DNA from: Acidimicrobiia bacterium
Lineage (GTDB): Bacteria > Actinomycetota > Acidimicrobiia > Acidimicrobiales > JACDCH01
Assembly: GCA_052387955.1 (NCBI GenBank)
Contig: JBQTIQ010000017.1
Coordinates: 8,319 to 72,318, forward strand
DNA: 64,000 nt
Reading direction: 5' to 3'
Below, piece after piece: positions 3,092 to 61,075 of this stretch (positions within the stretch are counted from its first letter, which is position 1; every line of letters begins with the position of its first letter). Made by a program: the position numbers and the translations under genes. The notes under the pieces are model-generated. The model did not search any database. It saw nothing but the letters and a program-made list of their open reading frames with translations, and was not told where the DNA came from.

Positions 3092-5059
<1,968 letters not shown>

Positions 5060-5091
5060 CTGCGGCGCTCCTTGCGCTGATGACCGGCCGG

Positions 5092-5149
5092 CCGAGCGAC
5101 CGCCAGGGAGCCGGACGGCGATGGGGTACGGGGGCGCAGCCCCCGAGCG
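5092..5149 (-). repeat. Family-A intergenic repeat copy in the sdhC-sdhA gap
   Basis: The minus strand reads cgctcgggggctgcgcccccgtaccccatcgccgtccggctccctggcggtcgctcgg. The core palindrome is GGGGGC-TGC-GCCCCC. It matches copies at 11.9, 20.7, 24.1, 36.6, 42.4 and 61.0 kb. Confidence 0.85.
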
Positions 5150-5156
5150 AAGACGC

Positions 5157-6014
5157 TCATCGATCGTCTTCTTCAGCTTCTGCCGCCACGATGGCTGCCG
5201 CCTTCTGGCACGGCACCCCGTTGTTGTTGGTCTCCTGGCAGACCTTGACCCGCTCGGCGTAGTCGAAGTCGATGATGCGGACCTGCACCGCGGCCGGGAA
5301 CCCGAGGTTCGCCCCGGCCACGCCGAGGGCGAAGAGGCGGGCCACCCACACCCGCCAACGGTTGAAGCGGGGCCGGTTCCACCCGAGCGTCTGTAGGAAC
5401 GAGTAGGCCCCGTGGAACATGTGGATGCCGAGGGCCATGTTGGCCGTCTGGTACAGCCCGGCGATGGCCGGCCGCCGGAAGCTGTTCACCATGTTGTTGA
5501 AGGGGTCGCCCCGAACGAAGGAGCCGTTGGCCGTCCCCCACGTCAGGTCAGCCAGGTGGAACACCAGGTAGAGGATCACGATGATGCCCGTGTACCGCAT
5601 CGTCCGCGATGCCCAGTTGGCCGCCACCATGTCGCGCTGGCTGACGTAGCGCTGGGGCCGGGCCCGGTGGTTCATCTTGGTGAGCTGGTACGCCGACATC
5701 ATGTGGAGGGCGAAGGCGATCATCAGCAGGCCGCGGATGCCCCACAGGATCCACGTGCGGGGCGCGAACGGGACCAGCAGGTTGCGCAGCCACTCGCCGT
5801 AGTGATTGAGGTCGTCGGCGCCGAGGAGGGCCTTGGCGTTGCCGAGCATGTGGAACAGCACGAACAGCAGCAGGAACAGCCCGCTGATGGCCATGACCCA
5901 CTTCTTGCCGACGGCCGAGCGGTAGAACTCGACCGCGTACCACCGGCTGTGGCGGACCGGACCGTTCACGACCGGGGTCGGCGCGCTGCTCAAGTCCAGT
6001 TGCGTCGCGCTCAC
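5157..6014 (-). CDS. sdhC: Succinate dehydrogenase cytochrome b subunit (b558-type, five-helix)
   Basis: ORF 5157..6014 with a GTG start. It is a multi-helix membrane protein with conserved His residues ([28 protein letters not shown]). It lies directly upstream of sdhA-sdhB on the same strand. Confidence 0.85.
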
Positions 6015-6158
6015 CGCACGAAACTACCGCCAGGGCCAGCATCGTTAGAAAATCGACACATACCAGTTGCGGATGGGACGTAGCGCTCGGACAGATGACC
6101 GCTCGGTCACCGTTCGTGCACCGGGGCACGAGCGATCGACGGGCCGGCCGTAGCGCTC

Positions 6159-7046
6159 TCAGCGGGTGCCGATGTCGCCCTGGAGCGTGCCTTCGATCTC
6201 GAACCCGCCGTCGACCGGCGTGACGCGGATCGAGTACGGGCCGTCGGGCAGGTTCACGCCGGCGAAGGGGGCTTCGGTCCCGTCGGGCTGCTCGACTACC
6301 AGCTCGCCTTCGAAGGCGGCGTTGCCGACGCCGTCGAAGCGGTCCGGGGTCTCGTTCAGCACGGTGTTGGCGCCGCCCCGGAAGGTCACGGTCGGGTTGG
6401 CGCCGGTCTCGAAGGTCACCTGGTCGACGGCCTCGTTGGTGGCGGTGCCGTCGCCGATGGCGACCGGGGTGTTGAGCGTGTAGGTGCCGGCGATGAACGC
6501 CACCGGGTCGAGGTTGAAGAACCCGAGCACGGTGGCGTCGGCGCTGATGTCGATGACGACCTGGTTGGCGAGGAGCTTTCCGCCGTCGCCCTCGAGCTGG
6601 AAGGGCACACCGGCGTCCCACTCGATCGACACCGGGCTCTCGTCGATGGTGACGCCGGTGATGGTGGCGCCGGAGCCGCCGCCGCGCTCGGGTGTGGTGA
6701 TGGCGAGCGGCGTCGCCAGAGGCGGCAGGCCGGCCACGCCCTCGAGATGGATGGCGGTGGCCATGCCCCGGACGATCACCTGGTTCCGGCCCGGCAGCAC
6801 GTCGGGGCCGAGGCCGGGGTTGTCGCTACCGCCGGCGGCGCTCCCGGTCCTCGCGGTGTCGTCCTGCCACTTGCGGTAGCCGATGGTCGTCACCGCCGCC
6901 GCCACGATCAACGCCGCCAGCAGCCCCACCAGGTACTGGGCCACCTCCGCCGGCTCGAGGCCGGCCACCAGCCGGCGGGCGTTGCCGGCTACCGCGGGCC
7001 CGTGGTCCTCGGTGGAGGCGGCGGCGTCGCCGGCGGGCCGGCTCAT
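6159..7046 (-). CDS. Hypothetical single-pass membrane-anchored protein with beta-rich extracytoplasmic domain
   Basis: This is the 3' part of ORF 6159..7340. I set the start at ATG 7046 (MSRPAGD...), because the longer ORF would run across the divergent AAA+ gene start. It has a TM helix (YLVGLLAALIVAAAVTTIGY). I recognise no family. Confidence 0.5.
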   Translation of the reverse strand: MSRPAGDAAASTEDHGPAVAGNARRLVAGLEPAEVAQYLVGLLAALIVAAAVTTIGYRKWQDDTARTGSAAGGSDNPGLGPDVLPGRNQVIVRGMATAIHLEGVAGLPPLATPLAITTPERGGGSGATITGVTIDESPVSIEWDAGVPFQLEGDGGKLLANQVVIDISADATVLGFFNLDPVAFIAGTYTLNTPVAIGDGTATNEAVDQVTFETGANPTVTFRGGANTVLNETPDRFDGVGNAAFEGELVVEQPDGTEAPFAGVNLPDGPYSIRVTPVDGGFEIEGTLQGDIGTR

Positions 7047-9880: not shown

Positions 9881-11911
9881 ATGGCCCGGCCCAGCAGAGC
9901 GCGGTTCCGGTTCTCCCGTTGGGACGGCTCGCAGACCGGGTTCGACCTCGACGCCGACGCCGTCTTCGCCGAGATCAACGACGACCTCCTCTATCACGGC
10001 GACCTCAACGCTGCCTTGCGCCGCCTCATGCAGTCGGGCCTGCGCGACCGCAACGGCGACCACGTCCAAGGCCTGCGCGAGCTCATGGAACAGCTGCGCC
10101 GCCGCCGGCGCGACGAGCTCGAGCGTTACGACCTCGGTGGGGTCTACGACGATATCGCCCAGGAGCTGCGCGACGTGGTCGAGCTCGAGCACCGGTCGGT
10201 GGACGCCCAGGCCGAGGCCGCCCGCACCTCGGGCGACGAACGCCGCCGCGAGCTGGCCGAGGCGTCGGCGGCCGAGCGCCACCTCCAGCTCGACATGCTC
10301 GCCCCCGACCTCGCCGGCATGGTGCGCGACCTCCAGCAGTACGACTTCACCTCCGCCGAGGCTCGGCAGCGCTTCGAGGTGCTGCTCGACCGGCTCCGCC
10401 AACAGCTGGCCCAGAGCTACTTCAAACAGATGAGCGATGGCCTGCAAGGTCTCGATCCGGCCCAGCTCCAGCGCATGAAGGACATGTTCGCCGAGCTCAA
10501 CCAGATGCTGGCGCACCGCGACCAGGGCCAGGACACCCAGGGCGCCTTCGAGGGGTTCATGGACCGCTTCGGCGACATGTTCCCCGAAGGCCCCAGCACC
10601 CTCGACCAGCTGCTCGAGATCCTGGCCCAGCGCCTGGCGGCGATGCAGCGCATGTTGAACTCGATGACGCCCGAGCAGCGGGCGCAGCTGCAGGGCCTGG
10701 CCGAGGGGCTCCTGGCCGACATGGACCTGCGGTGGGAGCTCGACCAGCTGTCGGGCCACCTTCAGCAGCTGTTCCCGGAGATGGGGTGGGGGGACCGTTA
10801 CGACTTCAGCGGCCAGGACCCTCTGTCGCTGGCCGAAGCGGCGGCGCTGATGGAGCGCCTCGGCGACATCGACCAGCTCGAGAACCTCATGCGGGGCGCC
10901 AGTGCGCCGGGGGCCTTGGCCGAGGTCGACATCGACCGGGCTCGGGACCTCTTGGGCGACGAGGCCGCCGACAGCCTCGAGCGCATGGCCCAGTTGGCCA
11001 AGATGCTGGAGGAAGCCGGTCTCATCGAGCACCGCGAGGGCCGCTACGAGCTGACGCCGCGAGGCATACGCAAGATCGGGTCCGACGCGCTGTCCGACTT
11101 GTTCCGCAAGCTCGACCGTGACCGCCTCGGCAACCACGTGATCGCCCGGGCCGGCCTCGGCCACGAACGGGCCTACGAGACCAAGCCCTACGAGTTCGGC
11201 GACCCGTTCAACCTCGACATCGAACGGACCGTGCGCAACGCCATCAGCCGCCAGGGCTCCGGGACACCGGTGCGGCTCCGGCCTGACGACTTCGAGATCG
11301 AGCGCACCGAGGTGCTGTCCCAGACGTCGACGGTGCTGATGCTCGACCTGTCGTTGTCGATGCCGATGCGGGACAACTTCCTCGCCGCCAAGAAGGTGGC
11401 CATGGCCCTGCACTCGCTCATCACGTCGCAGTTCCCCCGGGACTACCTCGGGATCGTGGGGTTCTCGTCGGTCGCCCGCGAGCTCAAGCCGCACAACCTG
11501 CCCGAGGTGTCGTGGGACTTCGTGTACGGCACCAACATGCAGCACGGTTTCCGGTTGAGCCGCCACCTGCTGGGGCGGCGGAGCGGGACCCGCCAGATCA
11601 TCATGATCACCGACGGCGAGCCCACCGCCCACTTCGAACCGGGCATGGCCGAACCGTTCTTCTGCTATCCCCCGGTGCAGGAGACGGTCGACGCCACCAT
11701 GCGGGAGGTGGCACGCTGCACCCGCGACGGCATCCGCATCAACACCTTCATGCTCGACGCCACCAGCTACCTCAAGGATTTCATCGAGAAGCTCTCGAAG
11801 CTGAACGGCGGCCGCGCCTTTTTCACCACCCCCGAGACCCTGGGCGACTACGTCCTGGTCGACTTCGTCGAGCACCGCACCAGCCGCCGGGGCTCGGGCC
11901 GAGCCTCCTAG
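9881..11911 (+). CDS. von Willebrand factor A (VWA) domain protein with long helical N-terminal region
   Basis: This is the 3' part of ORF 9833..11911. I set the start at ATG 9881 (MARPSRARFRFSRWDG...). The C-terminal VWA domain has a MIDAS motif (VLMLDLSLSMPM ... IIMITDGEPTA). Confidence 0.8.
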   Translation: MARPSRARFRFSRWDGSQTGFDLDADAVFAEINDDLLYHGDLNAALRRLMQSGLRDRNGDHVQGLRELMEQLRRRRRDELERYDLGGVYDDIAQELRDVVELEHRSVDAQAEAARTSGDERRRELAEASAAERHLQLDMLAPDLAGMVRDLQQYDFTSAEARQRFEVLLDRLRQQLAQSYFKQMSDGLQGLDPAQLQRMKDMFAELNQMLAHRDQGQDTQGAFEGFMDRFGDMFPEGPSTLDQLLEILAQRLAAMQRMLNSMTPEQRAQLQGLAEGLLADMDLRWELDQLSGHLQQLFPEMGWGDRYDFSGQDPLSLAEAAALMERLGDIDQLENLMRGASAPGALAEVDIDRARDLLGDEAADSLERMAQLAKMLEEAGLIEHREGRYELTPRGIRKIGSDALSDLFRKLDRDRLGNHVIARAGLGHERAYETKPYEFGDPFNLDIERTVRNAISRQGSGTPVRLRPDDFEIERTEVLSQTSTVLMLDLSLSMPMRDNFLAAKKVAMALHSLITSQFPRDYLGIVGFSSVARELKPHNLPEVSWDFVYGTNMQHGFRLSRHLLGRRSGTRQIIMITDGEPTAHFEPGMAEPFFCYPPVQETVDATMREVARCTRDGIRINTFMLDATSYLKDFIEKLSKLNGGRAFFTTPETLGDYVLVDFVEHRTSRRGSGRAS

Positions 11912-12030
11912 ATCTGCTCGGTCCCGAGGAGGCTTGACGTCGTGACAAGTTCCTGGACCGAGCAGATGCCGACCGAGCGACCGCCACGGAGCCGGGCGGC
12001 GATGGGGGCCGGGGGGCGCAGCCCCCCAGC
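11908..12030 (-). repeat. 123-bp composite repeat (hairpin module plus family-A core), copy 1
   Basis: ctagatctgctcggtcccgaggaggcttgacgtcgtgacaagttcctggaccgagcagatgccgaccgagcgaccgccacggagccgggcggcgatgggggccggggggcgcagccccccagc. By hand it aligns without gaps to the reverse complement of 42369-42491 (about 110/123 identical). It contains the VWA gene stop codon TAG 11909-11911. Confidence 0.9.
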
Positions 12031-12101
12031 CAATGGCCGAGCGTCTGTCGGCCGACGTCAGCGGGCTGACGCCAGGGGCCGGGTGAACCGAGGCCCGGCC
12101 C

Positions 12102-13909: not shown

Positions 13910-13980
13910 CGGCCGGGACCTCCTTCGGGACCACCGTCCCCGAGGGCCGTCCGCAGGGCGGGGCACGGTAGTCTGGCCCG

Positions 13981-14145
13981 GTGAACCTCGGAGCGCCGGA
14001 ACTCATCATCATCCTGCTGGTCGTGCTGTTGCTCTTCGGTGGGGCCAAGCTTCCCAAGCTGGCCCGATCGCTGGGCCAGGCCCAGAAGGAATTCAAGGAC
14101 GGCATGGTGGAGACGAAGAAGAAGGGCGAAGACGAGACCGTCTGA
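13981..14145 (+). CDS. tatA: Twin-arginine translocase subunit TatA/E
   Basis: My translation of a 54-codon GTG-initiated ORF, which is too short for the ORF track. It reads [54 protein letters not shown], the canonical TatA TM helix plus amphipathic helix. Confidence 0.85.
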
Positions 14146-14317
14146 GCCCAGCGCGAGTTCGATGCTGGGGCCGTCCCGAGGTCTTGACGCGCCCCTGTCC
14201 CGCTGACCTGCTTTCGTCTGCCGGCGTCCATCCGAGGTTCGCCCCATCAGACGTCGACCGCGGGACCTCCGCCCGGCATGAGTACTCAGGTCGGCTTCGC
14301 CGGTACTCGGCTCGAGT

Positions 14318-14572: not shown

Positions 14573-14788
14573 GTGAGCTCCGTTCCTCGACGCATCTACG
14601 GTGCCGATTAGCTCGTCGGTCCATAGAGACGTTGAGTTGATGTTCGGCGTTCCGCTTTTCGTTACATTCGTCGGGCCACGGCCACGAGTACGGGACCATC
14701 GACTCGTCATGTCGGCCACAGGAGACATCAACGCGGGTAAGGCCAAGATCAAGGCCTCGGGCCGAGGCCGGCCGCGGGCGGATCTGCG

Positions 14789-20586: not shown

Positions 20587-20733
20587 CGGTGACGGCGGCG
20601 GCTGGGTCGAAGCCCGGCCGCCTCCTCATCGAGGACCCTAAGCAGACGGGGCTGTGCTCAACCAGTAGGTCAACGTGTGACCATCCCGTGGACAGTGCCG
20701 CCTCGTCTGTGGACAGAGCGGCCAGGCCGTTCA

Positions 20734-20941
20734 TGCTCGGGGGCTGCGCCCCCGGGCCCCATCGTCGCCCGGCTCGCTAGCGCTCGCCCGGTCGACCGGT
20801 CACTGGCGGGCGGAGCGAGCGACGGTGGACCCATGACCGCGCCTGCTCGGGGGCTGCGCCCCCGGGCCCCATCGTCGCCCGGCTCGCTGGCGCTCGCCCG
20901 GTCGACCGGTCACTGGCGGGCGGAGCGAGCGATGGTGGACC
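20734..20941 (+). repeat. Tandem duplication (period 110 bp) of a long family-A repeat unit
   Basis: The 98-nt unit tgctcgggggctgcgcccccgggccccatcgtcgcccggctcgctRgcgctcgcccggtcgaccggtcactggcgggcggagcgagcgaYggtggacc occurs at 20734-20831 and 20844-20941. The two copies differ at 2 positions and are separated by a 12-nt spacer. Confidence 0.95.
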
Positions 20942-20969
20942 AAGTGACCGTCCCGCCGGCCCGGTCCGC

Positions 20970-23657: not shown

Positions 23658-24167
23658 ATGGCAGAGCCCGACTGGCTGGACGCCGACCAGCAGCGGGCGT
23701 GGCGGGCCTATCTGCGCTCCCACGCCGAGTTGGTGGCGGCGCTGAACCGGCGCCTGGTCGCGGCCGACGGCCTGTCGGTGGCCGACTACGAGGTACTCGT
23801 CCATCTCACCGAGGCCCCCGGTCAGCGCCTCCGCCCCTTCGAGCTGGCCGACCTCATGGCGTGGGAGAAGAGCCGGCTGTCGCATCACCTGGCCCGGATG
23901 CGAGGCCGCGGGCTGGTCCGTCGTCAGCAGTGCGACAGCGATGGCCGCGGCGCCTGGACCGTGTGCACCGCCGCCGGTCGGAGGGCCATGGCCGGCGCCG
24001 CCACCGGCCATGTCGCCGACGTCCGTCGCTGGTTCGTCGAGCCGGTCGGCCAGCGTGACCTGGCCATCCTGGGGGACCTCAGCGAACGGGTCCTGGCTGC
24101 CATCGCCGACGACGAGCTAGCTGGGGGGCTGGGCCCCCCCGGCCCCCGTCGCCGCCCGGCTCCCTAG
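23658..24167 (+). CDS. MarR-family transcriptional regulator
   Basis: ORF 23658..24167. The winged-HTH region is GLSVADYEVLVHLTEAPGQRLRPFELADLMAWEKSRLSHHLARMRGRGLVRR. The last ~16 codons and the stop lie inside a family-A repeat. Confidence 0.85.
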   Translation: MAEPDWLDADQQRAWRAYLRSHAELVAALNRRLVAADGLSVADYEVLVHLTEAPGQRLRPFELADLMAWEKSRLSHHLARMRGRGLVRRQQCDSDGRGAWTVCTAAGRRAMAGAATGHVADVRRWFVEPVGQRDLAILGDLSERVLAAIADDELAGGLGPPGPRRRPAP

Positions 24168-24186
24168 CGGTCGCTCGGTCGGCATC
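24117..24186 (+). repeat. Family-A repeat copy in the convergent MarR/pirin gap
   Basis: ctagctggggggctgggcccccccggcccccgtcgccgcccggctccctagcggtcgctcggtcggcatc closely parallels 42367-42434. Confidence 0.8.
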
Positions 24187-24190
24187 GAGC

Positions 24191-25144
24191 TCAGCCTCGG
24201 TAAGGGCGCAGCCCGTCGACGGGGACACGGCCGAGGCGGCCGGCGTGGAAGTCGTCGAACGCCTGTTGCAGCTCGGCGCGGGTGGTCATCACGAACGGGC
24301 CGTAGGCGGCGACGGGTTCGCCGATGCGCCGGCCCCCGAGCAGGAGCACCTCGAGCGCGCCGGTGGCGTGCGCCCCGACCTCGATGGTGTCGCCGGGGCC
24401 GAAGCGGGCCAGCTGGCCCGACGTGATCGGCTGCCCGTCGGTGCCGACGGTGCCGTCGCCAGCCAGGGCATAGGCCAGGGCATTGAAGCTGGCCGGCCAC
24501 CGCAGTCGCAGCCGGGCGCCGGGGGAGACGGTCGCATGGGCGACGGTGATGGGGGTGTGGGTGGCGCCCGGGCCGATGTGGCCGGCGAGGTCGCCGGCGA
24601 TGAGCCGGACGAGGGCCCCGCCGTCGGCTGAGGACAGCAGGGTGACCTGGTCGCCCTCGATGCTCTGGTAGCGGGGGGCGGCCATCTTGTCCCTGGCCGG
24701 CAGGTTGACCCACAGCTGGACGCCGTGGAACAGCCCTCCGCTCAGCACCAGTTCCTCGGGCGGCGTCTCGATGTGGAGGATCCCGCCGCCGGCGGTCATC
24801 CACTGCGTGCCGCCGTTGGTGATGAGCCCGCCACCGCCGTGGGAATCCTGGTGCTGGAACGTGCCGTCGATCATGTAGGTGACGGTCTCGAAGCCGCGGT
24901 GCGGGTGCCAGTCGGTCCCCTTGGGTTCGCCCGGGGCGTAGTCGACCTCGCCCATCTGGTCCATGTGGATGAAGGGGTCGAGGTCGGCCTTCGACACGCC
25001 GGCGAACGCCCTCCGCACCGGGAACCCCTCGCCCTCGACGGCCCGAGGGGCGGTGAGAACGCCGACGACGGGCCGCGTCGCGGCCTCGGGGCCGGGCCGG
25101 TCGACCTTGGGCAGGGTGAGCGTGTCGGCGGTGATGGCAGGCAT
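24191..25144 (-). CDS. Pirin-family protein (bicupin)
   Basis: This is the 3' part of ORF 24191..25330. I set the start at ATG 25144, preceded by AGGAGG. It has FPVRRAF, DPFIHMDQMG and the metal motif HPHRGFETVTYMIDG. Confidence 0.9.
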   Translation of the reverse strand: MPAITADTLTLPKVDRPGPEAATRPVVGVLTAPRAVEGEGFPVRRAFAGVSKADLDPFIHMDQMGEVDYAPGEPKGTDWHPHRGFETVTYMIDGTFQHQDSHGGGGLITNGGTQWMTAGGGILHIETPPEELVLSGGLFHGVQLWVNLPARDKMAAPRYQSIEGDQVTLLSSADGGALVRLIAGDLAGHIGPGATHTPITVAHATVSPGARLRLRWPASFNALAYALAGDGTVGTDGQPITSGQLARFGPGDTIEVGAHATGALEVLLLGGRRIGEPVAAYGPFVMTTRAELQQAFDDFHAGRLGRVPVDGLRPYRG

Positions 25145-28545: not shown

Positions 28546-28655
28546 GGTCCTCCTGTGGGGGCTCGCCCCACAGTCTCGCGTGCGGTCCGGGTTGCCCACG
28601 GGCGCGGGCCGGGGGATGCCGTCAACGTGACAGGATGTCCGCCGCTGCCGCCGAT

Positions 28656-28720
28656 GCGAGCGCCGGAGCGCCAGCGCAGGTGCGGCCAGGCGCGGCCTGC
28701 GCGGCCGGGGAACGCCGACG
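28656..28720 (+). repeat. Family-B intergenic repeat, copy 1
   Basis: gcgagcgccggagcgccagcgcaggtgcggccaggcgcggcctgcgcggccggggaacgccgacg. By hand it is about 85 % identical to 38822-38886. The GGCCGGGGAAC(G/A)C end also occurs at 30873-30886 and 61059-61070. Confidence 0.85.
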
Positions 28721-28722
28721 TT

Positions 28723-30836: not shown

Positions 30837-30842
30837 CGGTCG

Positions 30843-30887
30843 CGCCCAGGCGCGGCCCTGAGCGGCCTGCGTGGCCGGGGAACGCCA
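30843..30887 (+). repeat. Family-B repeat, partial copy
   Basis: cgcccaggcgcggccctgagcggcctgcgtggccggggaacgcca shares the ccaggcgcggcc and cctgcg.ggccggggaacgcc segments with 28684-28716. Confidence 0.6.
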
Positions 30888-30900
30888 GCTAGCAACGCGT

Positions 30901-36566: not shown

Positions 36567-36767
36567 CGGGGCACCGTCGCTTGGGGTCTCCCCCGGTGAC
36601 CCCTCGACCGGGTGAGCGCCAGCGAGCCGGGCGACGATGGGGCCCGGGGGCGCAGCCCCCGAACATGAACGGTCACCGGGACCCCGTCGCTTGTGGGCGC
36701 AGCTCCCGAGCATGAACGGTCACCGTGGCACCATCGCTCGGGCGCAGCCCGGGGCATGAACGGTCAC
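36563..36767 (-). repeat. Family-A repeat array (units of 44, 47 and 110 nt) filling the hemH-hemY gap
   Basis: The minus strand has GTGACCGTTCAT(G/T)... units beginning at 36767, 36723 and 36676. The 110-nt unit matches the 20.7-kb tandem unit (tcgaccggg.gagcgc.agcgagccgggcgacgatggggcccgggggcgcagcccccga.catgaacgg on the plus strand). Confidence 0.9.
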
Positions 36768-37724: not shown

Positions 37725-38801
37725 TCACCGTGACGTGCGGCCTTCGGTGTGTACCAGATCGACCAGCCGAGCGAGGGTGTCGGGGTCGGTCTCGGGCAGC
37801 ACGCCGTGGCCGAGGTTGAACACGTAGTTGGGTTCCCCCCCGCCCTCGGCCAGCACGTCGCGGGCCGCCGCTTCGACCGCCGCCCACGGGGCCAGGCACA
37901 CCGCCGGGTCGAGGTTGCCCTGCAGCGCGGTGCCGGGACGCACGGCGTCGACCCGCTGGCGGGCGAGTGACAGCGGCGTGCGCCAGTCGACGCCCACGAC
38001 GTCGGCGCCGGCCTCGGCGAAGAGCCCGAGCAGCTCACCGGTGCAGACACCGAAGTGGGCCCGGGGCACGCCAAGGTCGGCCACGGCGGCGAACACCTTG
38101 GCCGACGCCGGCAGCACCTGGCGCCGGTAGTCGGCCGGGGTCAACGCCCCCGCCCAGGAATCGAACAGCTGCACCGCCTGGGCGCCGCTGTCGACCTGGG
38201 ACCGCAGCGAGGCGATGGCCAGGTCGGCCAACCGGTCGAGCAGCTTCTCCCACAGTCCCGGATCGGTGCGCATCAGCGCCTTGGTGCGGGCGTAGACCCG
38301 TGAGGGGGCACCCTCGATCAGGTACGAGGCCACGGTGAAGGGGGCTCCGGCGAACCCGATCAGGGCTACATCGGGGCCGAGCGACTCGGCCACCAGTGAC
38401 ACCGTCTCGAGCACATAGGGAGTGTCGGCATCGGGGTCGAGCGGCCGCAGCCGGTCGAGGTCGGCGGCCGAGCGGAACGGCGCCTCCACCACCGGGCCGG
38501 TGCCAGGGGCGATGTCGACCCCGAAGCCGATGGCGGCGACCGGCACCACGATGTCGGAATAGACGATGGCGGCGTCCACGCCGTAGCGCCGTACCGGCTG
38601 AAGGGTGATCTCCGCTGCCAGTTCCGGTTTGCGGATGGCGTCGAGGATCGAGCCGTCGCCCCGCACCGCCCGGTACTCGGGCAGCGCCCGGCCGGCCTGG
38701 CGCATGAACCACACCGGCACCCGCCCGTGGGGCTCGCCCCGGCAAGCGGCCAGGAACGGTGCGGTGACCGCGTGCTCGATGGAGCCCGGCCGTTCGGTCA
38801 C
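37725..38801 (-). CDS. hemE: Uroporphyrinogen decarboxylase
   Basis: ORF 37725..38801 with a GTG start. It has [30 protein letters not shown], and the rest is family-typical. Confidence 0.95.
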
Positions 38802-38821
38802 GGGCCTCCCCGTCCACCGGT

Positions 38822-38886
38822 ACGAGCGCCGGAGCGCCAGCGCATGCGGGGCCAGACCCCGCCTGCGGGGCCGGGGAACACCGACA
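38822..38886 (+). repeat. Family-B intergenic repeat, copy 2
   Basis: acgagcgccggagcgccagcgcatgcggggccagaccccgcctgcggggccggggaacaccgaca lies in the patatin-hemE gap. Confidence 0.85.
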
Positions 38887-38892
38887 ACACGT

Positions 38893-39858
38893 TCACGCCG
38901 CCAGCCGCGACACCAGGTTGGCGGCGGCGGGGTGCTCGAGGCGCTGGATCGTGCTGCGCCGGGCCTGTTCGGCCACCACCCGGCGCCGCTTGGGGTTCAT
39001 GCTGTTGGCCCCCATCACCACCGTGTCCTCGGCGGTCGGCTCGAGCAGCAGCACCGGCGTACCCGAGGCCCGCACCTGGCGGAGCTCCCGGTCCAGGGCC
39101 CACGACGCCAGCGCCCGACTGGCCATGTTGGGGATCGGCCGCAACGCCGAGCGAGCCGACGACATCGTCGACACCACCACGGCCAGGTCGAGCCCGATAC
39201 CGGCCACGAGGTCGGCGTTTGAAGGGGAGTGGGCGCCGCCGTCGACGTAGGTCCGGCCGCCGATGGCCACCGGGCGGAAGAATCCGGGGATGGCCGACGA
39301 GGCTTCCACCGCGGTGCCCACGTCGGGGGTGCTGGCGGGGTCGAGCGTGTCCCGGCCGAAGACCACCCGGGCGCCGTCGCCCAGGCGCAGGGCGCAGATC
39401 CACAAGGCCTCGTCGGGCCACGAGCGCCCTCCGTAGAGCCCTCGCACCCGTTCGCCGATGGGCTCGGTGGGCACCGACCCGGCCGGCATCAGCCCGGCCA
39501 GGGCGATCATCGGCCGAGGGTTCCACGGCGGGAACAGGGCCGCTGCCAGTTGGGGGGCAGCTGGCATCAACGCCCGGGGGATCAGCGGGTAGTCGGACCA
39601 GGACGGGCCTTCGTCGTCCCCCACGAGGCGCTGGCCCGCCGCCGACAGCGGCGTCCCGGTGGCCCGGGCGAAGTGGTCGGCCGGGGAAAGGCCGGCGCGC
39701 AGGGCTGCCCCGGCCACCGAGCCGGCCGACGTTCCCACCACCAGATCGGCGGCGCGGGCATCCCAGCCGGTGACCTCGGCCAACGCGGCCAGCGCACCGG
39801 CGTGGTACGCACCCCCGACCAGGCCGCCGGCGCCGAGTACGAGCCCCACGTACGGCAC
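38893..39858 (-). CDS. Patatin-like phospholipase
   Basis: These are the last 321 codons of the artefactually long ORF 38893..41655. I set the start at GTG 39858. It has the oxyanion motif GAGGLVGG, the nucleophile motif GTSAG and the Asp motif YVDGGAHS. Confidence 0.85.
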
Positions 39859-42336: not shown

Positions 42337-42368
42337 GGGGCACCCCGTGCCGCCACCCGGCAGATCTA

Positions 42369-42491
42369 GCTGGGGGGCTGCGCTCCCCGGCCCCCATCCC
42401 CGCCCGGCTCCCTGGCGGTTGCTCGGTCGGTATCTGCTCGGCCCCGGGACCTGTGACAACGTCATGCCTTCTCGGGACCGAGCAGATCTAG
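42369..42491 (+). repeat. 123-bp composite repeat (family-A core plus hairpin module), copy 2
   Basis: This is the reverse complement of 11908-12030 at about 89 % identity by hand alignment. The hairpin arms atctgctcggccccggg / ctcgggaccgagcagat lie at 42432-42448 / 42471-42487. CAGATCTAG occurs at both 42361-42369 and 42483-42491. Confidence 0.9.
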
Positions 42492-49141: not shown

Positions 49142-49176
49142 CGCCGCATTCTGCCGTCGAGCAGAAACAGACGGCC

Positions 49177-51720
49177 CTAGTCGGCCTGGATGGCCTGGAG
49201 GATGTCGAGCCGGGCCGCCCGACGGGCAGGGCGCACCGCGGCCAGGATGCCGGCAACGGCACCGGCGACGACCAGACCGATGAGGCCGCCGAAGGGCAGC
49301 GTGTACTGCACCCCCTCGCTGGACGCCGCCTGCACCAGCGCCCAACTGAAGAACAGGCCGATGAACACGCCGCCGAGGGTGCCGAACAGGGCGATGATCA
49401 CCGACTCCCATCGGATCGACGAGCGCACCTGCCGGCGGGCCATACCGACCGCCCGCAGGAGGCCGAGCTCGCGGGTGCGTTCGTTGATCGACAACGACAG
49501 CGTGTTGGCGATGCCCATCAGCGAGATCACGATGGCCAGGGCGAGCATGGCATAGACCAGGCCCAGGACCTGATTGATCGAGTTCGACTGGGTGGTCCGG
49601 AACTCCTCGCGGTCCTGCAGCTCGGAGCCGGCGGCCAGCTGGTCGACCAGCGGCTTGATCGACGCTCGGACCGTGTCGACGTCGGTGCCCTCGGCGACCT
49701 TTACCGACACGAACGTGTCCAGGTTCTCCTGGGAATGGGGCTCCCATGCCGACAGGCCGAGCACGTAGTTGCCGACGATGTCGTCGTTGTCGTAGTGGGC
49801 CGCCACCGTGAACGTCGCCGTGGCCCCGTCGACGAAGCGCACCGGGAGCTTGGTGCCGACGGGCCAGCCCTTGTCGTCGGCCACGTCACAATTGACGGCC
49901 AGGTCGGTGGGGCCGAGCGTGCCGGCGCCGGCCGAGAAGCCGAGGTCGAAGACCTGGCCCAGCGACGCCGGGTCGGCGATGGCTACGCCCTTGGGCTCGC
50001 CGTCGACCTCCATGAGCCCGAATCGCAGCCCCGAGACTGCCGCAACCCCGGGGACCTGTCGGGTCCGGGCCGCCAGCTCGGGGGTGATGCCGCCGATGCC
50101 GAACGTGCCCGAGTCCACCACCAGGTCGCCGGCGAACGAACGGTCGATGGCCTCGTTGATGGTCGTCTTGAGCGACGCCGCGAACACGGTGAACAGCGCG
50201 GCGACACCGACGCCGACCATGAGCGCGGCGGCGGTTCCTGACGTCCGCCGGGGGTTGCGCACCGCGTTCTCGCGGGCCAGGGAACCGGTCACGCCCTTGA
50301 GCCGGGGTAGGGGAGACCCGAGCAGGCGGCTCACCGGGCCGGCGGCGACCGGCCCCAGTACCACCACACCGAGCAGCGTCAGCACCGCGCCGGCTCCGGC
50401 GCCGAGCACGGCGTTGTCGCCCTTGCCGATCACCGCCACCAACACGTTGCCGACGCCCAGGGCCACAACCACCAGGCCGACGATGATGCGGCCCTTCGAC
50501 GCCACGGCCCTCTCGAAGGCGACGTCGCCGATGGCGGCGATGGGCGGGATGCGGGTTGCCTTGAGCGCCGGCGCCACCCCCGCCACCAGCGTCACCACGA
50601 CCCCGACCAGCATGGAGATGACGGCGATACGGGGCCCGAAGGCCAGGCCTGACGCGGGGAGGCCGAGGCCGAACCCGGCCAGCATTGCCTTGAGCCCGAC
50701 CGCGATGCCGAACCCGGCCACGATGCCGAGGGCGGACCCGATCACGCCCACGGCGAGGGCCTCGGCCAGCACGGAACCCATGACCTGGCGCCGCGACGCT
50801 CCCAGCGCCCGTAGCAGGGCCATCTCCCGCGCCCGTTGGGAGACGATGATCGAGAAGGTGTTGTAGATGCTGAACACAGCTACCGCCACGGCGATGCCGG
50901 CGAAGATGGTGAGGAACACGTTGAAGAACGACAGGAACTGCGACTGGATGTCGTCGAGCTGTTCGGTGGTCAGGGCCTCGCCCGTGATGGCCTCGGTACC
51001 CGCCGGCAGGAGGGCGCTGATCCGATCGGTGAGCTCCTGCTCCGGTACGCCCGGGGCGGCGGCGGCGATGATGGCGTCGACCCGGCCGGCCTGGCCGGCG
51101 ATCTCGCGCTCGGCCACCTCGGTGGTGAAGGCGGCGTAGGTGACGCCCCCGGCGCTGTCCTCCTCGCCATAGGTGGCGATGCCCACGACGGTGGCCCCCA
51201 CGGTGCGGCTGAGCTGGATGGTCACGCGCTCACCGAGGGCAACATCACCTTCGTCGGCGGCGCCCTTGTTGATCACCACCTCGCCCTCGGTGGCGGGGGG
51301 ACGGCCCTCGACGATGCGGTAGGGGTTGAGCCCGGGCTGGTCGATCCAGTTCTCGGCCAGCGTGGGCGGGCCCTGCCCGGGCGAGCCCAGCGCCTCGCCC
51401 TCGGTGTTGACGATGCGGCCGTTGCCGGTGATGTACACGCTGGCTTCGGCGACGCCGTCGACGCCGGCGACGGCGTCGAACAACGACGCGTCGATCCGGC
51501 CCCGGGCCACGAAGCCGTCGACCTCGAGGCGGCTGTCCGCTCTCACGTAACTGTCGACGCCGGCGTTGGCGTTGGTGAACAGCTCGTCGAAGGTTTCCTC
51601 CAGCGTGGCGGTGAGCGTGAGCACCCCACTCAGGAACCCGACTCCGAGTACCACCGCCAGCAGCGTCGAGGCCAGCCGGCGCTTGTGGGCCAACAGGTTC
51701 TTGAGCGTGACCCGGCGCAC
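49177..51720 (-). CDS. ABC transporter permease, MacB/FtsX type with two FtsX domains
   Basis: ORF 49177..51720 with a GTG start. It begins MRRVTLKNLLAHKRRLASTLLAVVLGVGFLSG. It has two 4-TM FtsX modules, each followed or preceded by a large extracytoplasmic domain. Confidence 0.9.
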   Translation of the reverse strand: MRRVTLKNLLAHKRRLASTLLAVVLGVGFLSGVLTLTATLEETFDELFTNANAGVDSYVRADSRLEVDGFVARGRIDASLFDAVAGVDGVAEASVYITGNGRIVNTEGEALGSPGQGPPTLAENWIDQPGLNPYRIVEGRPPATEGEVVINKGAADEGDVALGERVTIQLSRTVGATVVGIATYGEEDSAGGVTYAAFTTEVAEREIAGQAGRVDAIIAAAAPGVPEQELTDRISALLPAGTEAITGEALTTEQLDDIQSQFLSFFNVFLTIFAGIAVAVAVFSIYNTFSIIVSQRAREMALLRALGASRRQVMGSVLAEALAVGVIGSALGIVAGFGIAVGLKAMLAGFGLGLPASGLAFGPRIAVISMLVGVVVTLVAGVAPALKATRIPPIAAIGDVAFERAVASKGRIIVGLVVVALGVGNVLVAVIGKGDNAVLGAGAGAVLTLLGVVVLGPVAAGPVSRLLGSPLPRLKGVTGSLARENAVRNPRRTSGTAAALMVGVGVAALFTVFAASLKTTINEAIDRSFAGDLVVDSGTFGIGGITPELAARTRQVPGVAAVSGLRFGLMEVDGEPKGVAIADPASLGQVFDLGFSAGAGTLGPTDLAVNCDVADDKGWPVGTKLPVRFVDGATATFTVAAHYDNDDIVGNYVLGLSAWEPHSQENLDTFVSVKVAEGTDVDTVRASIKPLVDQLAAGSELQDREEFRTTQSNSINQVLGLVYAMLALAIVISLMGIANTLSLSINERTRELGLLRAVGMARRQVRSSIRWESVIIALFGTLGGVFIGLFFSWALVQAASSEGVQYTLPFGGLIGLVVAGAVAGILAAVRPARRAARLDILQAIQAD

Positions 51721-51730
51721 TATCTTCCCC

Positions 51731-51775
51731 GGTGGGGCCGCGCCCCACGCCCATCGTCGCCAGGCGGGCTGACGG
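51731..51775 (+). repeat. Degenerate family-A core in the ABC ATPase-permease gap (opposite orientation to the genes)
   Basis: ggtggggccgcgccccacgcccatcgtcgccaggcgggctgacgg compares with the consensus cgggggctgcgcccccgggccccatcgtcgcccggctcgctgg. Confidence 0.5.
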
Positions 51776-51813
51776 CGGCGCCGTCGGCCTGAAGCGCTCG
51801 CTTCGCTCGCACC

Positions 51814-52575
51814 TCAGTCCCCCAAGGCTTTCATCCGGTCGAGGACCTTTTCGGGGGTGGGGTCGGCCATGTCGGCCACGATGTGGCCGTCGGCCAGGAA
51901 CAGGGCATGGTCGGCGTAGCCGGCCGCCACCGGGTCGTGGGTGACCATGGCGATGGTCTGGCCCAGGTCGCGCACCGCCCGGCGCATGAAGTCCAGGATC
52001 TCGGCGCCGGAGCGGGAGTCGAGGTTGCCGGTGGGCTCGTCGGCGAAGATGATGCTGGGCTTCGACGCCAGCGCCCGGGCCACCGCCACCCGTTGCTGCT
52101 CGCCCCCCGACAGCTCGGCCGGTCGGTGCCCGAGCCGTTCCCGCAGCCCGACCGTGCCGATGACCTCGTCGAGCCAGTCCTGGTCGCCCTTCTTGCCCGC
52201 CAACGCCGCCGGCAGGGTGATGTTCTCGAGGGCGTTGAGCGTCGGCACCAGGTTGAACGACTGGAACACGAAGCCGACCTGCTCCCGCCGTAGCACCGTC
52301 AGCTCCTTGTCCGACAGCGTCCCGAGCTCGACGCCGCCGAGCAGGATCCGGCCCGACGTGAGCGAGTCGAGCCCGGCCAGGCAGTGCATCAAGGTGGACT
52401 TGCCCGAGCCCGAAGGGCCCATGATGGCCGTGAACCGGCTGCCGGGGATGTCGACGGTCACGTCGTCGAGGGCATGGACCGCGGTCGGGCCCGACCCGTA
52501 GACCTTGCTCGCCGCTTCGGCCCGGGCCACGGTGGACGCGGGGGCCGACACGGTCGACGGGGATTGAGAACTCAT
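51814..52575 (-). CDS. ABC transporter ATP-binding protein (MacB/LolD-like)
   Basis: ORF 51814..52584. I prefer ATG 52575 as the start (GTG 52584 is possible). It has the Walker A motif GPSGSGKST, the Q-loop, the signature LSGGEQQRVAVARAL and the Walker B motif IIFADEPTGNLD. Confidence 0.9.
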   Translation of the reverse strand: MSSQSPSTVSAPASTVARAEAASKVYGSGPTAVHALDDVTVDIPGSRFTAIMGPSGSGKSTLMHCLAGLDSLTSGRILLGGVELGTLSDKELTVLRREQVGFVFQSFNLVPTLNALENITLPAALAGKKGDQDWLDEVIGTVGLRERLGHRPAELSGGEQQRVAVARALASKPSIIFADEPTGNLDSRSGAEILDFMRRAVRDLGQTIAMVTHDPVAAGYADHALFLADGHIVADMADPTPEKVLDRMKALGD

Positions 52576-52590
52576 GCACGGCACCCTATT

Positions 52591-52728
52591 GCTGGTTCGC
52601 TGCGGGCTGGGGGCCCTTCGCTCATGTGTCGGCTGCTCGCTGGCGGTCGCGACGCCGACGCTGGTTCGCTGCGGGCTGGGGGCCCTTCGCTCACGTGTCG
52701 GCTGCTCCCTGGCGGTCGCGACGCCGAC
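52591..52728 (+). repeat. Tandem 69-bp repeat x2 (family-A-related variant)
   Basis: gctggttcgctgcgggctgggggcccttcgctcaYgtgtcggctgctcSctggcggtcgcgacgccgac occurs at 52591-52659 and 52660-52728, with 2 mismatches. Confidence 0.95.
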
Positions 52729-52858
52729 CTTGCCGGGCAGGGCTGGCCTGGTGGGGGGCGTCGCCGGGCAACCGGCGCTTCGCGATATCGGGCCTCGGCC
52801 GGGCGCAGCAACTCTTGCGCCGCCGTGCTTGCCCCGGCCCGCTCGGCGGGCTCTGGGG

Positions 52859-58990: not shown

Positions 58991-59377
58991 ATGGCTGTCA
59001 CCGGTCGCTCGCCGTACCTGCCGCCCTCGCCGGCGGCTGAGGACGACGAAGCCGACGAAGCCACGTTCGGGTTGAGGGTCAACCTCCCCGACTCGCCCGG
59101 CGGCGGAGGCCTGTGCGGCATCTTCGCCACCGGGAGCCTCGACGCGTCAGCGGTGGGCGCATTCGAGAGAACTGTCCGCCGTGCCCTTCAGGCGGGCCCG
59201 GCGGAGGTCGACGTCGACCTGGGCCAGGTGCGCTTCATCGATTCGTCGGGGCTGCGTGCCCTGGTGGCTGGCCGCCGGGCCTGTCGGGCTGCCGGCGCCG
59301 CCTTCCGCCTGCTCAACCCGACGCCCCGGACCGTGCGCATCCTCGAGGTCACCGGGCTCGATTCTCTTTTCGCCTGA
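58991..59377 (+). CDS. STAS-domain anti-sigma-factor antagonist
   Basis: ORF 58991..59377. It has VDLGQVRFIDSSGLRALV (a phosphorylatable-Ser context, DSSGL) and RILEVTGLDSLF. Confidence 0.8.
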   Translation: MAVTGRSPYLPPSPAAEDDEADEATFGLRVNLPDSPGGGGLCGIFATGSLDASAVGAFERTVRRALQAGPAEVDVDLGQVRFIDSSGLRALVAGRRACRAAGAAFRLLNPTPRTVRILEVTGLDSLFA

Positions 59378-59430
59378 CCTGTCCCGTCGGGTCATCGATG
59401 GGCCACGGGCCCAATCGCAGCCTCGGCCCG

Positions 59431-60612
59431 TCAATCACCCGTGACGGTTTCACTGCTGTCGGCGGCGGGCCGGACGAGGGCGACGAGCGCCGGTTGGGCG
59501 GCGACGAGGCGTGGTAGCGACGACGCCAGATCGGCGACCGTGCCGGCTGACAGCTTCTCGGCCGCCTCCATCGCCTCGTGGCCCATGGCCAGGTTGCCGG
59601 CCAGCGTCGACGACATGGCCCCGTAGAACAGCGAGAGCGCCCGCCCCGGCCAGTCGGTGGCCGCCCGGTCGATGACTTCGGTGAAGGCGGCGAGGCCACG
59701 GGCGTTGCCGGCGATGACGAGCTCCTCGCACAGCGACACGACCTCGTCCGCCCGGCCGAGCACCGATACGGCTCGGTCGAGCAGCCCGCCGTCGGCCAGG
59801 GCCAGCAGGGCCATACCCGAGCGGTGGGAGGCCTGGCGAGGGTCGACGAGGTCCTCCCGGGCGCCAGCCGCGGTGCGCAAAGCGACCCCGTCGTCCTCGA
59901 CCGTCCGGGCCTGTTGCTCGAGGCTGGCGTCGAGGAAGTCGGCCAGGGCCCGGGCTTGGAGCATCGGTGCGTAGGCGTCGGCGAACCCGACGACCCGAGC
60001 GGCGGCCAGCACTTCGCGCTCATGGTCCGTGGCCCGCTCGTCGCCTGTTGCCAGGGCGACTTCGACCAGAGCCGCCTCGGTGGCGGCGGCCAACAGCTCG
60101 TCGCTGTGCCCGGCGGCGAAGCGGGCGGCGTCGGCCAGCGTCTCGGTCATGACCCATCGGGTCACGACATCGAGGTGGTCGGCATCGAGGGTGAGCCATT
60201 CCGGCAGGCCGTCATCGTCAGCCCTCCAGCCGTGGTCGAAATCGCTCGGGTGCCGCGCCCGGCACGTTCTTGCCGCGGCGCGCAGCCGGGCCCTCGGCTT
60301 CAACGGCGTGCCTGGTCCGTCGATCAGGGCGGTGGCCCGGCGCAGGTCGGCGGCAGCTTCGGCGGCCCCAGGACGGGCGAGGGCGCGCAGGACGGTCAGC
60401 TCCAGGCGCATGCCGGCCCGTGGCATCGCGGCAAGGGCGGCGTCCCAGGCCGCGTCGGCCCCACCGGTTCGGCCGACGCGGTCGTGGCACTGGTCCAGTT
60501 CGCCGAGAGCGACGGCCAGCCCGCTCAGGTACTCGGGACCGGGGACGACGACGGCAAGGAGAGCGGCTAGTCGTCCTTCGGCCGCGGCGAGGGCGTCGTC
60601 GGCGCCCGCCAT
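59431..60612 (-). CDS. Hypothetical all-alpha protein, co-directional 5 nt after a STAS gene
   Basis: ORF 59431..60612. The composition is Ala/Leu-rich and helical. I recognise no family. Confidence 0.5.
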   Translation of the reverse strand: MAGADDALAAAEGRLAALLAVVVPGPEYLSGLAVALGELDQCHDRVGRTGGADAAWDAALAAMPRAGMRLELTVLRALARPGAAEAAADLRRATALIDGPGTPLKPRARLRAAARTCRARHPSDFDHGWRADDDGLPEWLTLDADHLDVVTRWVMTETLADAARFAAGHSDELLAAATEAALVEVALATGDERATDHEREVLAAARVVGFADAYAPMLQARALADFLDASLEQQARTVEDDGVALRTAAGAREDLVDPRQASHRSGMALLALADGGLLDRAVSVLGRADEVVSLCEELVIAGNARGLAAFTEVIDRAATDWPGRALSLFYGAMSSTLAGNLAMGHEAMEAAEKLSAGTVADLASSLPRLVAAQPALVALVRPAADSSETVTGD

Positions 60613-60617
60613 GGGGG

Positions 60618-60938
60618 TCAGGCGCCGGTGAGCAGGTCGCGGGTGCCGGTCATGTCGAGCACGCGGGTGACCGCCGCGCTGGCTGGGGAGACCTGGAACG
60701 CGATGCCGGCGTTGACCAGCCGCTCGCGGCCCTGCAGCAGCGCCCTGAGACCCGACGAATCGATGAACGTCACCAGGCCGGCGTCGACGCTGACGGTGGT
60801 GACCCGCTGGGCGGCCAGCGAGGCGAGCACCTCGGTCAGGGCGCCGACCCCGTCGAGGTCGAGCTCGCCGTCGAGTCGCACAACCGCTTGGTCACCTTCG
60901 ACCAAGGTCTTGATGTCGACGTGGGCCGGGCTGCTCAT
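60618..60938 (-). CDS. STAS-domain anti-sigma-factor antagonist
   Basis: ORF 60618..60938. It reads VVRLDGELDLDGVGALTEVL...VSVDAGLVTFIDSSGLRALLQGRERL...VLDMTGTRDLL. Confidence 0.85.
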   Translation of the reverse strand: MSSPAHVDIKTLVEGDQAVVRLDGELDLDGVGALTEVLASLAAQRVTTVSVDAGLVTFIDSSGLRALLQGRERLVNAGIAFQVSPASAAVTRVLDMTGTRDLLTGA

Positions 60939-60974
60939 CGCGACGGACGATAGCGGCCGTTCGGGCCTGTCGCC

Positions 60975-61075
60975 GAGGCGAGCGCCAGCGAGCCCGGCGA
61001 CGATGGGGCCCGCGGGCGCAGCCCCCGAGCATGAAACGGTCGAGCCCCAGCCGGCGTGGCCGGGGAACGCGACAA
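60975..61075 (-). repeat. Composite family-B end plus family-A core in the HMG-CoA lyase / STAS gap
   Basis: The minus strand reads ttgtcgcgttccccggccacgccggctggggctcgaccgtttcatgctcgggggctgcgcccgcgggccccatcgtcgccgggctcgctggcgctcgcctcgg. Confidence 0.85.

Follow-up and report, generated by a model that had tools for sequence, protein, structure and literature searches.

A short, structured and probably mobile repeat at start codons of Acidimicrobiia, organised like mycobacterial interspersed repetitive units

Results

A repeat family at translational punctuation

A 64,000-nucleotide stretch of an Acidimicrobiia bacterium (assembly GCA_052387955.1, contig JBQTIQ010000017.1, positions 8,319 to 72,318; hereafter the window, with a G+C content of about 72% by base composition) contains a family of short repeats at gene boundaries that probably represents a structured, non-autonomous mobile element of about 80-125 nucleotides (nt), commonly 92 nt, which inserts at translational punctuation and carries a start-codon relay, that is, an internal open reading frame (ORF) whose stop codon overlaps the start codon of the following gene. 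The observations behind this reading are the repeat family itself, its RNA structure, insertion polymorphisms, a rule of reading phase, chains of ORFs and the agreement of their ends with annotated starts.

The palindrome GGGGGCTGCGCCCCC (at most 2 mismatches) occurs 12 times in the window against 3.15 expected, a count reached in 0 of 100 shuffles, and repeats were found at a minimum of 13 loci in 64 kb, which bears out the dense repeat family proposed in the original prediction made from the sequence alone. Eight strong copies of family A, located at 5.1, 12.0, 20.7 (two units), 24.1, 36.6, 42.4 and 61.0 kb, were recovered by BLAST, by alignment and with a covariance model, the latter matching all eight at E of 1e-6 or better. 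The model also matches two short units at 36686-36773 (E = 0.001), a diverged antisense copy on the plus strand at 51733-51791 (E = 0.05) and, as a partial match at 52697-52729, a family-A fragment in an array of 69-nt units. This array (two units, 52591-52728) and the family-B copies at 28.6, 30.8 and 38.8 kb are genuine repeats as well; the family-A model finds none of the family-B copies of the window, and the relationship between the two families that had been proposed was not upheld. With rough gene calls, repeats are present in 12 of the 46 gaps of at least 30 nt, and arrays of 2-4 units exist in the window and at loci of other metagenome-assembled genomes (MAGs). Comparison of the flanks across loci distinguishes three end types (S, AS and T) around one shared core. 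The copies of the window are as follows.

5056..5160, minus strand: single S-type unit of 101 nt between sdhC and sdhA (93.9 bits); its 3' hairpin GGTCATC...GATGACC contains the sdhA ATG at 5059
11908..12046, minus strand: T-type unit in a convergent gap; core plus long hairpin ATCTGCTCGGTCC...GGACCGAGCAGAT, end AGATCTAG; 89% match to the 42.4 kb copy
20717..20952, plus strand: S-type units, two in tandem with a period of 110; convergent gap, no gene downstream, relay broken
24103..24210, plus strand: T-type-like unit in a convergent gap; CTAG at the left edge
28639..28719, minus strand: family-B copy; divergent gap, upstream of gene 27682-28545; the open frame through the copy ends in GTGA on GTG 28545
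30809..30895, minus strand: family-B copy between the methyltransferase and prenyltransferase genes
36566..36767, minus strand: array at the hemH-hemY junction; two short units of 44 and 47 nt and a full S-type unit of 110 nt
38798..38896, minus strand: family-B copy between the patatin gene and hemE
42351..42491, plus strand: T-type unit in the lipoprotein gene after helD; folding z = -3.2
51720..51812, minus strand: junction of the ABC ATPase and permease genes; diverged AS-type unit whose core is on the plus strand (51733-51791)
52572..52811, minus strand: two 69-nt units (3n) before the ABC ATPase gene; units start (A/G)TGAGCGAAGG as in the AS type, with no first hairpin
60935..61075, minus strand: junction of the HMG-CoA lyase and STAS genes; fragment of family B and an S-type unit whose left boundary is degraded (50.1 bits)

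Mini-ORFs at seven junctions of the window

The seven mini-ORFs that had been placed at co-directional junctions of the window could all be read directly on the gene strand, and three of these junctions carry a complete relay. Between sdhC and sdhA the frame runs for 101 nt from ATG 5160 to TGA 5056, with ATGA at both ends. Between hemH and hemY, each of the four joints that lead from the hemH stop to the start of hemY (GTG 36566) has GTGA, forming a chain of ORFs of 15, 16, 37 and 450 codons. The frame at the patatin-hemE junction stops with TGA 38798, on the hemE GTG 38801, and opens either at GTG 38890 or at GTG 38896, which overlaps the patatin TGA and gives 95 nt with a 4-nt overlap at both ends. 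At the junction of the ABC ATPase and permease genes the frame starts one base after the upstream stop and extends from GTG 51812 to TAG 51720, with TAGTG on the permease GTG 51720. In the three other junctions the frames start with TTG: from TTG 52811 to TGA 52572 between the peroxiredoxin and ABC ATPase genes (ATGA on ATG 52575, both 69-nt units being read in one 80-codon frame), from TTG 61075 to TGA 60935 between the HMG-CoA lyase and STAS genes (ATGA on the STAS ATG 60938), and from TTG 30895 to TGA 30833, on GTG 30836, between the methyltransferase gene and the next gene.

The gene annotation of the window is that of the NCBI Prokaryotic Genome Annotation Pipeline (PGAP; proteins MGQ0615898 to MGQ0615953); exact protein look-ups assign the window to a contig of 76,916 bp from an NCBI MAG labelled Acidimicrobiia bacterium. 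An exact-sequence look-up showed that the starts assumed at the mini-ORF stops coincide with the PGAP starts in six of the seven cases (sdhA, hemY, hemE, permease, ABC ATPase and STAS). The overlap that had been proposed for the seventh did not hold against the annotation: this gene, previously described as having a cyclase fold and annotated as a prenyltransferase, starts in PGAP at GTG 30800 and not at GTG 30836. In other MAGs, nine of ten terminal starts are public annotated starts, including those of DapB, MoxR, citryl-CoA lyase, MarR, CcsA and a response regulator. The common open frame of the family-A copies, (H/F)(A/V)RGLRPR(A/T)PS..., was found on the copies as predicted. Concerning the unit lengths of the arrays, all of which had been given as 3n+2, the values of 44, 47 and 110 nt stand at the hemH-hemY junction; the second unit at 20.7 kb measures 111 nt to its GTGA, not 110, so that its frame runs on.

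Filled and empty insertion sites

Short-read Logan metagenome contigs of a close relative were used for comparison, and sites lacking the insert, for which the original prediction had suggested looking in relatives, were found at both the sdhC/sdhA and the helD/lipoprotein junctions. In the relative sdhC and sdhA are 8 nt apart, and the window carries a 101-nt insert between them with GATGA on each side. The 123-nt insert after helD is likewise missing from the relative (L009-L012); in the window it is 3n long and sits, in frame, in the 5' part of the lipoprotein coding sequence, with the direct repeat GCAGATCTAG on its flanks. This 42.4 kb copy is situated upstream of a signal peptide and lipobox (LAAGC) and has an in-frame ATG that is a possible new start (cf. 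L009:3400-3600). The annotated start of the lipoprotein lies elsewhere, as the ORF from GTG 42347 is not the recorded sequence. At the 24.1 kb site the relative (L013) carries the element too, with a length difference of 6.

Polymorphism was also seen among other genomes. The dapB start is preceded by 0, 1 or 2 units, with CATGACCGT repeated: the empty site GGCCA-CATGACCGT-TCGG appears in ten metagenome contigs (one and the same allele), while L019 has one 92-nt unit and L039 two. Two genes that overlap as TCGTGACC in L022 are separated in L116 by one 92-nt unit with GTGACC on both sides. Copy number differs between L089 (one unit) and L070 (two units). The direct repeats at filled sites are 5-10 nt long and lie within the consensus (CATGACCGT, GTGACC, GATGA and GCAGATCTAG). 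From these comparisons the element appears to land on [A/G]TGACC, rebuilding a start codon on each side; this motif is a very common start context (Met-Thr) in these genomes. The outermost ends of the unit are direct repeats, NTGACC(GT), and the left end CATGACCG is inverted only with respect to the inner arm CGGTCATG of the last hairpin. A reading of the CTAG ends as those of an IS630-type insertion sequence was dropped, since there are no terminal inverted repeats and CTAG is found at both ends in some T-type copies only.

Two further sites deserve description on their own. The units at L089:781-911 and L070:5043-5295, of 116 and 119 nt, are bounded by CTGACC and have a 31-nt flanking direct repeat (GCGTGATGGGTGATCTTGAGCTCCTGACCGT) that spans the start region of the downstream gene, which we read as iolC-like from its N-terminus. 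The insertion there seems to have occurred a few codons into the gene, with the entire 5' end duplicated. In the gap after the GTPase gene (window 20690-21000; L013:3800-3876) the copy of the relative abuts the GTPase stop and is sense to the GTPase gene, whereas the two units of the window sit farther on and are antisense to it; the two look like independent insertions in one gap.

Anatomy of the unit and RNA structure

In the S type the core is sense to the genes, and the unit, typically 92 nt from start codon to start codon, reads NTGACCGTnCnTCCTC / GGGGGC-TGC-GCCCCC / CCCCATCGTCGCCCGGCTCsCTGGCGsTCGC..GGTCGACC / GGTCAnGAGC-TGC-GCTCATGACC. Its last hairpin holds the downstream ATG or GTG in the 3' arm and often GGAG in the 5' arm. 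In the AS type the core is antisense to the genes; the gene strand reads ATGAGCGAGCGCAGCGAGCTCAT...GGGGGCGCAGCCCCC-GnGGnnnCG and then, at the boundary, ATGA, and the units are 86-95 nt long with NTGA (or TGATG) boundaries on the transcribed strand. S and AS are subfamilies of opposite orientation, each with NTGA boundaries on the transcribed strand; the separate nature of the antisense copies had been missed by the original prediction. The T type consists of the core followed by a long hairpin, often ending in AGATCTAG; in the window, the copies at 12.0, 24.1 and 42.4 kb belong to it. This type is placed at gene 3' ends and once in frame within a gene. Its end often has the palindrome CTAG, which equals TAG on both strands (window, L085, L096). 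The terminal TAG of the 12.0 kb unit (11909-11911) is the stop of ORF 9881-11911, and ORF 23658-24167 ends at a TAG within the 24.1 kb unit. Over all types, the stop/start overlaps used are ATGA, GTGA, TGATG and TAGTG.

RNAalifold on 32 S units from different loci gave three helices, with 97% of the cells paired and 7 pairs altered on both sides (e.g. CG 14 vs GC 14; UA 26 vs CG 5), values reached by 0 of 500 shuffles; slid controls pair in only 30-49%. The first hairpin and CCCCATCG are invariant owing to the design of the search pattern. Taken alone, the last, start-codon hairpin has a folding energy of -13.7 to -19.4 kcal/mol (-18.6 for the sdhA copy of the window). Folding z-scores of whole single units are not significant for the S and AS types, the T type being the exception, because GC-rich shuffles fold equally well; the structural support comes from covariation and from the local fold of the last hairpin. 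At L038:1305-1460 and L110:703-848 the middle hairpin of an S unit harbours a palindromic sequence of 60 nt (TCGACCCAACT...AGTTGGGTCGA), which brings the unit to 152 nt and keeps it at 3n+2; this resembles the insertion of one small mobile element into another.

Distribution, census and reading phase

A scan of 185,579 species genomes with the pattern GGGGGCTGCGCCCCN{4,6}CCCCATCGYCG located the core in at least 105 stretches; among the matches listed, nearly all are MAGs labelled Acidimicrobiia, Acidimicrobiales, Ilumatobacteraceae, Acidimicrobiaceae or the broader Actinomycetota. Dozens of Acidimicrobiia MAGs are represented, and many of these stretches have tandem copies. The census sample comprised 134 cores, in the window and in 105 loci from other Acidimicrobiia MAGs.

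Where copies face the 5' end of a gene, the core-spanning mini-ORF ends (at -4 or -1) on an in-frame candidate start in 80 of 116, compared with 70 of 244 control gaps in which such a start is reached by an ORF of 20 codons or more (p = 5e-13). The presence of any NTG-overlapped stop was dropped as evidence, being too permissive (about 60% of TGAs follow A, G or T), and for that reason strict chains, long downstream ORFs, control gaps and independent starts were used instead. A strict relay was defined by an upstream stop, overlapping (-4/-1) joints only, at least one mini-ORF and a terminal ORF of at least 100 codons. Such relays are found at 39 of the 65 co-directional junctions with a core and at 18 of the 207 without (p = 1.5e-16; odds ratio about 16), a contrast that is conservative in that the controls may include diverged copies. 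At many junctions the gap is exactly 88 nt, that is, one 92-nt unit placed in a former 4-nt overlap.

The unit lengths point in the same direction. The 38 best full-length matches of the covariance model, which uses no ORF logic, measure 95, 104, 107, 110, 116, 131 or 134 nt and are all 3n+2, so that every departure from the 107-nt match length is a multiple of three; the chance of 3n-only departures for six independent variants is about 0.001. The first exception to this phase is the second 20.7 kb unit of the window, in a convergent gap. Tandem spacings are 89, 92, 95, 110, 116 and 119 nt (3n+2) or 81, 90 and 93 nt (3n), and never 3n+1. Of the three 3n arrays, those of 90 and 93 nt are each read as a single frame whose end remains on the start codon; the 81-nt array is read in frame into the downstream ORF. 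The computational checks named in advance by the original prediction (enrichment of the overlap, the 3n+2 lengths, the downstream starts and relatives lacking the insert) were all run, and none of them refuted the reading of the repeat as a start-codon relay.

Discussion

Proposed mechanism

In the scenario that we propose, the element would target start codons of the form [A/G]TGACC or, between the genes of an operon, stop/start overlaps of 4 nt. The target would be repeated at both ends, so that the unit opens with a TGA-overlapped start codon and the original start codon follows it. A ribosome would start at the upstream copy, using the native ribosome-binding site of the gene, or would arrive from the upstream cistron, and would then read the filler frame of about 30 codons, melting the last hairpin on its way. 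Termination on the TGA overlapping the true start would be followed by re-initiation there (termination-reinitiation coupling). Tandem copies would be chained likewise, and 3n arrays would be read as a single frame ending on the start codon. According to the folding model, the 3' hairpin would bury the downstream start codon together with the GGAG resembling a Shine-Dalgarno (SD) motif, and downstream translation should then depend on translation of the filler frame. Since the peptides encoded by the two subfamilies come from opposite strands and are unrelated, the filler peptide itself is unlikely to be of importance. Insertion would be nearly neutral for the host, which would explain the abundance of the element inside operons. 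Movement presumably involves a mobilising enzyme.

A more speculative extension, possible though rather doubtful, is that the family is an active mobile element, that its insertion machinery itself recognises translational punctuation (NTGACC/TCATGA starts, stop/start overlaps and, in the third subtype, CTAG/TAG stops) and that the orientation-specific subfamilies evolved so that every insertion rebuilds a working start; hosts may then have co-opted the hairpin as a coupling switch. If true, start-codon-homing repeats such as the interspersed repetitive units of mycobacteria (MIRUs) would amount to a strategy both convergent and widespread among high-GC Actinomycetota, with a mobilising enzyme still to be discovered.

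Several points weigh against a mobile repeat with a start-codon relay. Three of the seven junctions of the window (30.8, 52.6 and 61.0 kb) are coupled at the 3' end only, with the TTG placed 5 to 48 nt past the upstream stop, and about 35-40% of the junction copies in the census do not carry a complete relay. The chance background in GC-rich DNA is high, 9-29% of control gaps showing some relay-like ORF. Direct initiation may suffice at sdhA, which has AAGGAG 8 nt upstream of its ATG, and about 30-45% of terminal starts also have an SD-like motif. Translation of the mini-ORFs and re-initiation are steps that we infer from sequence. The 3n+2 rule could in part reflect descent from a single 3n+2 master copy. 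Gene calls in the window and at the other MAG loci come from a simple, crude codon-score caller, and the other MAG loci were fetched by a pattern requiring an intact first hairpin, so the census favours well-preserved copies. Family B, as judged with the family-A covariance model, has no demonstrable kinship to family A. Finally, no transposase or mobilising gene turned up, although no systematic search was made.

Alternative explanations

If the hairpins were bound by a protein or cut by an RNase, and the start-codon hairpin enforced coupling or set the ratios within operons, the repeat would be a regulatory module recruited by the host, as opposed to selfish DNA that is tolerated, and the relay a selected function, which is compatible with a mobile origin. 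The conservation of hairpin sequence and structure across many MAG species, with compensatory changes, would fit such a role, as would the stable hairpin over the start codon with an SD-like GGAG in many copies and the presence of copies in core operons (sdhCAB, hemH-hemY, hemE and dapB). However, close relatives lack the insert at the same junctions with nothing else changed, the copy number varies between 0, 1 and 2 in the manner of a variable number tandem repeat (VNTR), the flanking genes are unrelated in function, and the search pattern accounts in part for the first hairpin being so conserved. A regulatory module is in our view unlikely as the explanation of these copies.

The strict-relay enrichment (odds ratio about 16) and the indels in multiples of 3 over seven length classes are hard to reconcile with an ordinary extragenic palindrome, akin to a repetitive extragenic palindromic sequence or bacterial interspersed mosaic element (REP/BIME) or to a miniature inverted-repeat transposable element, that acts as mRNA stabiliser, terminator or recombination site and whose frames and overlaps are by-products of GC richness and of a preference for TGAC targets. 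It is true that any frame tends to be open in DNA of 72% GC, that in 29% of control gaps an ORF stops on a candidate start, that copies also lie in the convergent gaps at 12.0, 20.7 and 24.1 kb, and that the folding z-scores of whole single units are unremarkable. Nevertheless, alternative overlap forms are in use, both orientation-specific subfamilies are bounded on the coding strand, and the sole early phase-breaking full-length unit sits where no gene follows; in addition, the aligned units have neither a GTAG head nor a T-run after the hairpins. This makes an ordinary palindrome quite improbable. That the mini-ORFs encode functional micropeptides, e.g. MTVLPRGLRPRAPSSPGSLA..., and that the repeats are a family of small-protein genes is scarcely credible: many copies share one open frame that yields a similar peptide, but conservation is at the level of nucleotides and base pairs and not of codon third positions, the AS subfamily encodes a wholly different peptide from the complementary strand, the 44- and 47-nt units and the length variants freely drop or add segments of the peptide, and the unit is missing at the same sites in close relatives.

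Gene context and assemblies

The identities of the genes in the window (sdhC/A/B, ppk, hemE, hemY, helD, ABC transporter and STAS protein) are backed by Pfam and by the names in the source. The crude gene caller left three stretches of about 0.9-1.2 kb with no called gene, at 13910-14818, 17262-18403 and 48019-49176. Outside the window, family B (GTTCCCCGGCCnCGCAGGC...GCTGGCGC...CGCTCGCATC; window 28639-28719, 30809-30889 and 38805-38885) is also present in other Acidimicrobiia MAGs (L031, L044, L053 and L076), beside start codons. The Logan contigs of the close relative (3' ends of L013-L018, 5' ends of L009-L011) break inside repeat copies, about 25 nt past the GTPase or patatin gene; the repeats fragment the short-read assemblies of this lineage. 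They can also mislead the annotation of start codons in Acidimicrobiia MAGs and could serve as VNTR-type strain markers.

Comparison with known systems

The element is a new, non-homologous analogue of the MIRUs of Mycobacterium, which were reportedly described by Supply et al. in 1997. To our knowledge, MIRUs are the only described repeats that home to start codons and would be kept harmless by a filler ORF coupled to the gene. According to a 2025 review, they are mobile, insert at start codons and have an internal ORF coupled at -4 nt (PMC12548453), and a ribosome-delivery logic has been proposed for them (PMC12548453; PMC3184786). The MIRU-like organisation noted in the original prediction is an apt description, as the chained ORFs, the -4 overlaps and the insertion at start codons match this account. 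Like MIRUs, whose units measure about 40-100 bp, the element consists of short GC-rich units, dispersed and in tandem arrays of variable copy number, found at start codons and inside operons; at -4 nt its internal ORF overlaps the stop and start codons on either side, comparison of filled with empty sites shows short direct repeats, internal inverted repeats are present, and ribosome delivery is proposed to make insertion harmless. Homology to MIRU was rejected, given that local alignment of both subfamily consensuses on both strands with MIRU motif A (TGACGAGGAGCGGCGCAGATGGCA) and motif B (GGCGCCGGTGACGATGCAGAGCGTAGCGA) (PMC6286618) showed no similarity beyond shuffles (p = 0.13 to 0.98). The host also differs, Acidimicrobiia being another class of Actinomycetota, and the element spans many MAG species while MIRUs belong to one genus. 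By description it is further set apart by a covarying three-hairpin architecture with a terminal hairpin that would bury the downstream start codon, and by two orientation-specific subfamilies plus a third end type with CTAG/TAG at gene 3' ends.

Other repeats share some of these features. The REP2 of Neisseria and the upstream repeats of Borrelia carry a promoter and 5' untranslated region and act as expression cassettes (Delihas 2011, PMC3184786); neither a 3n+2 filler ORF stopping on a start codon nor tandem operon relays are described for them (PMC3184786). The in-frame gene fusions of Rickettsia palindromic elements can be likened to the 42.4 kb copy and to several read-through 3n arrays, but those elements usually insert within coding sequences, which the present element does exceptionally, most copies lying exactly at gene boundaries. 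The REP/BIME sequences of proteobacteria (REPIN-RAYT) are, like it, abundant GC-rich extragenic palindromes in operons and convergent gaps; the element differs in its longer multi-hairpin unit, in the constraint on reading phase and in its boundary start/stop codons. REP units are imperfect palindromes of 20-40 nt headed by a conserved GTAG; no such head was seen in the alignment of 32 units (about 92 nt, three hairpins), where CCTC stands before the first hairpin. Engineered bicistronic designs and translational couplers resemble it in having a short leader ORF that overlaps the gene start, where the ribosome melts local structure and re-initiates, but they are synthetic and single-copy, whereas the element is natural and self-spreading.

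Searches of databases and literature gave no previous description. There was no Rfam 15 match at gathering thresholds over the whole window or at E <= 1 over 36500-36800, no plasmid match by BLAST with the 92-nt consensus, no paper containing the core sequence string, and nothing relevant in a keyword search on Acidimicrobiia repeats. A repeat-derived primer of Mycobacterium intracellulare (GGCGACCCGCTTCGCCCGGCTCCG; PMC10117815, Table 1) has the 12-mer TCGCCCGGCTCC in common with the family-A core, which may be chance in GC-rich sequence or a hint of distant mycobacterial relatives. Next to MIRUs, the element provides an independent example, with many copies in many species. Taken with its clean empty and filled sites, its phase rule, its orientation-specific subfamilies and a hairpin that should tie downstream translation to the filler ORF, this allows the idea of ribosome delivery, and likewise the hunt for a mobilising enzyme, to be put to the test with comparative genomics and simple reporter assays.

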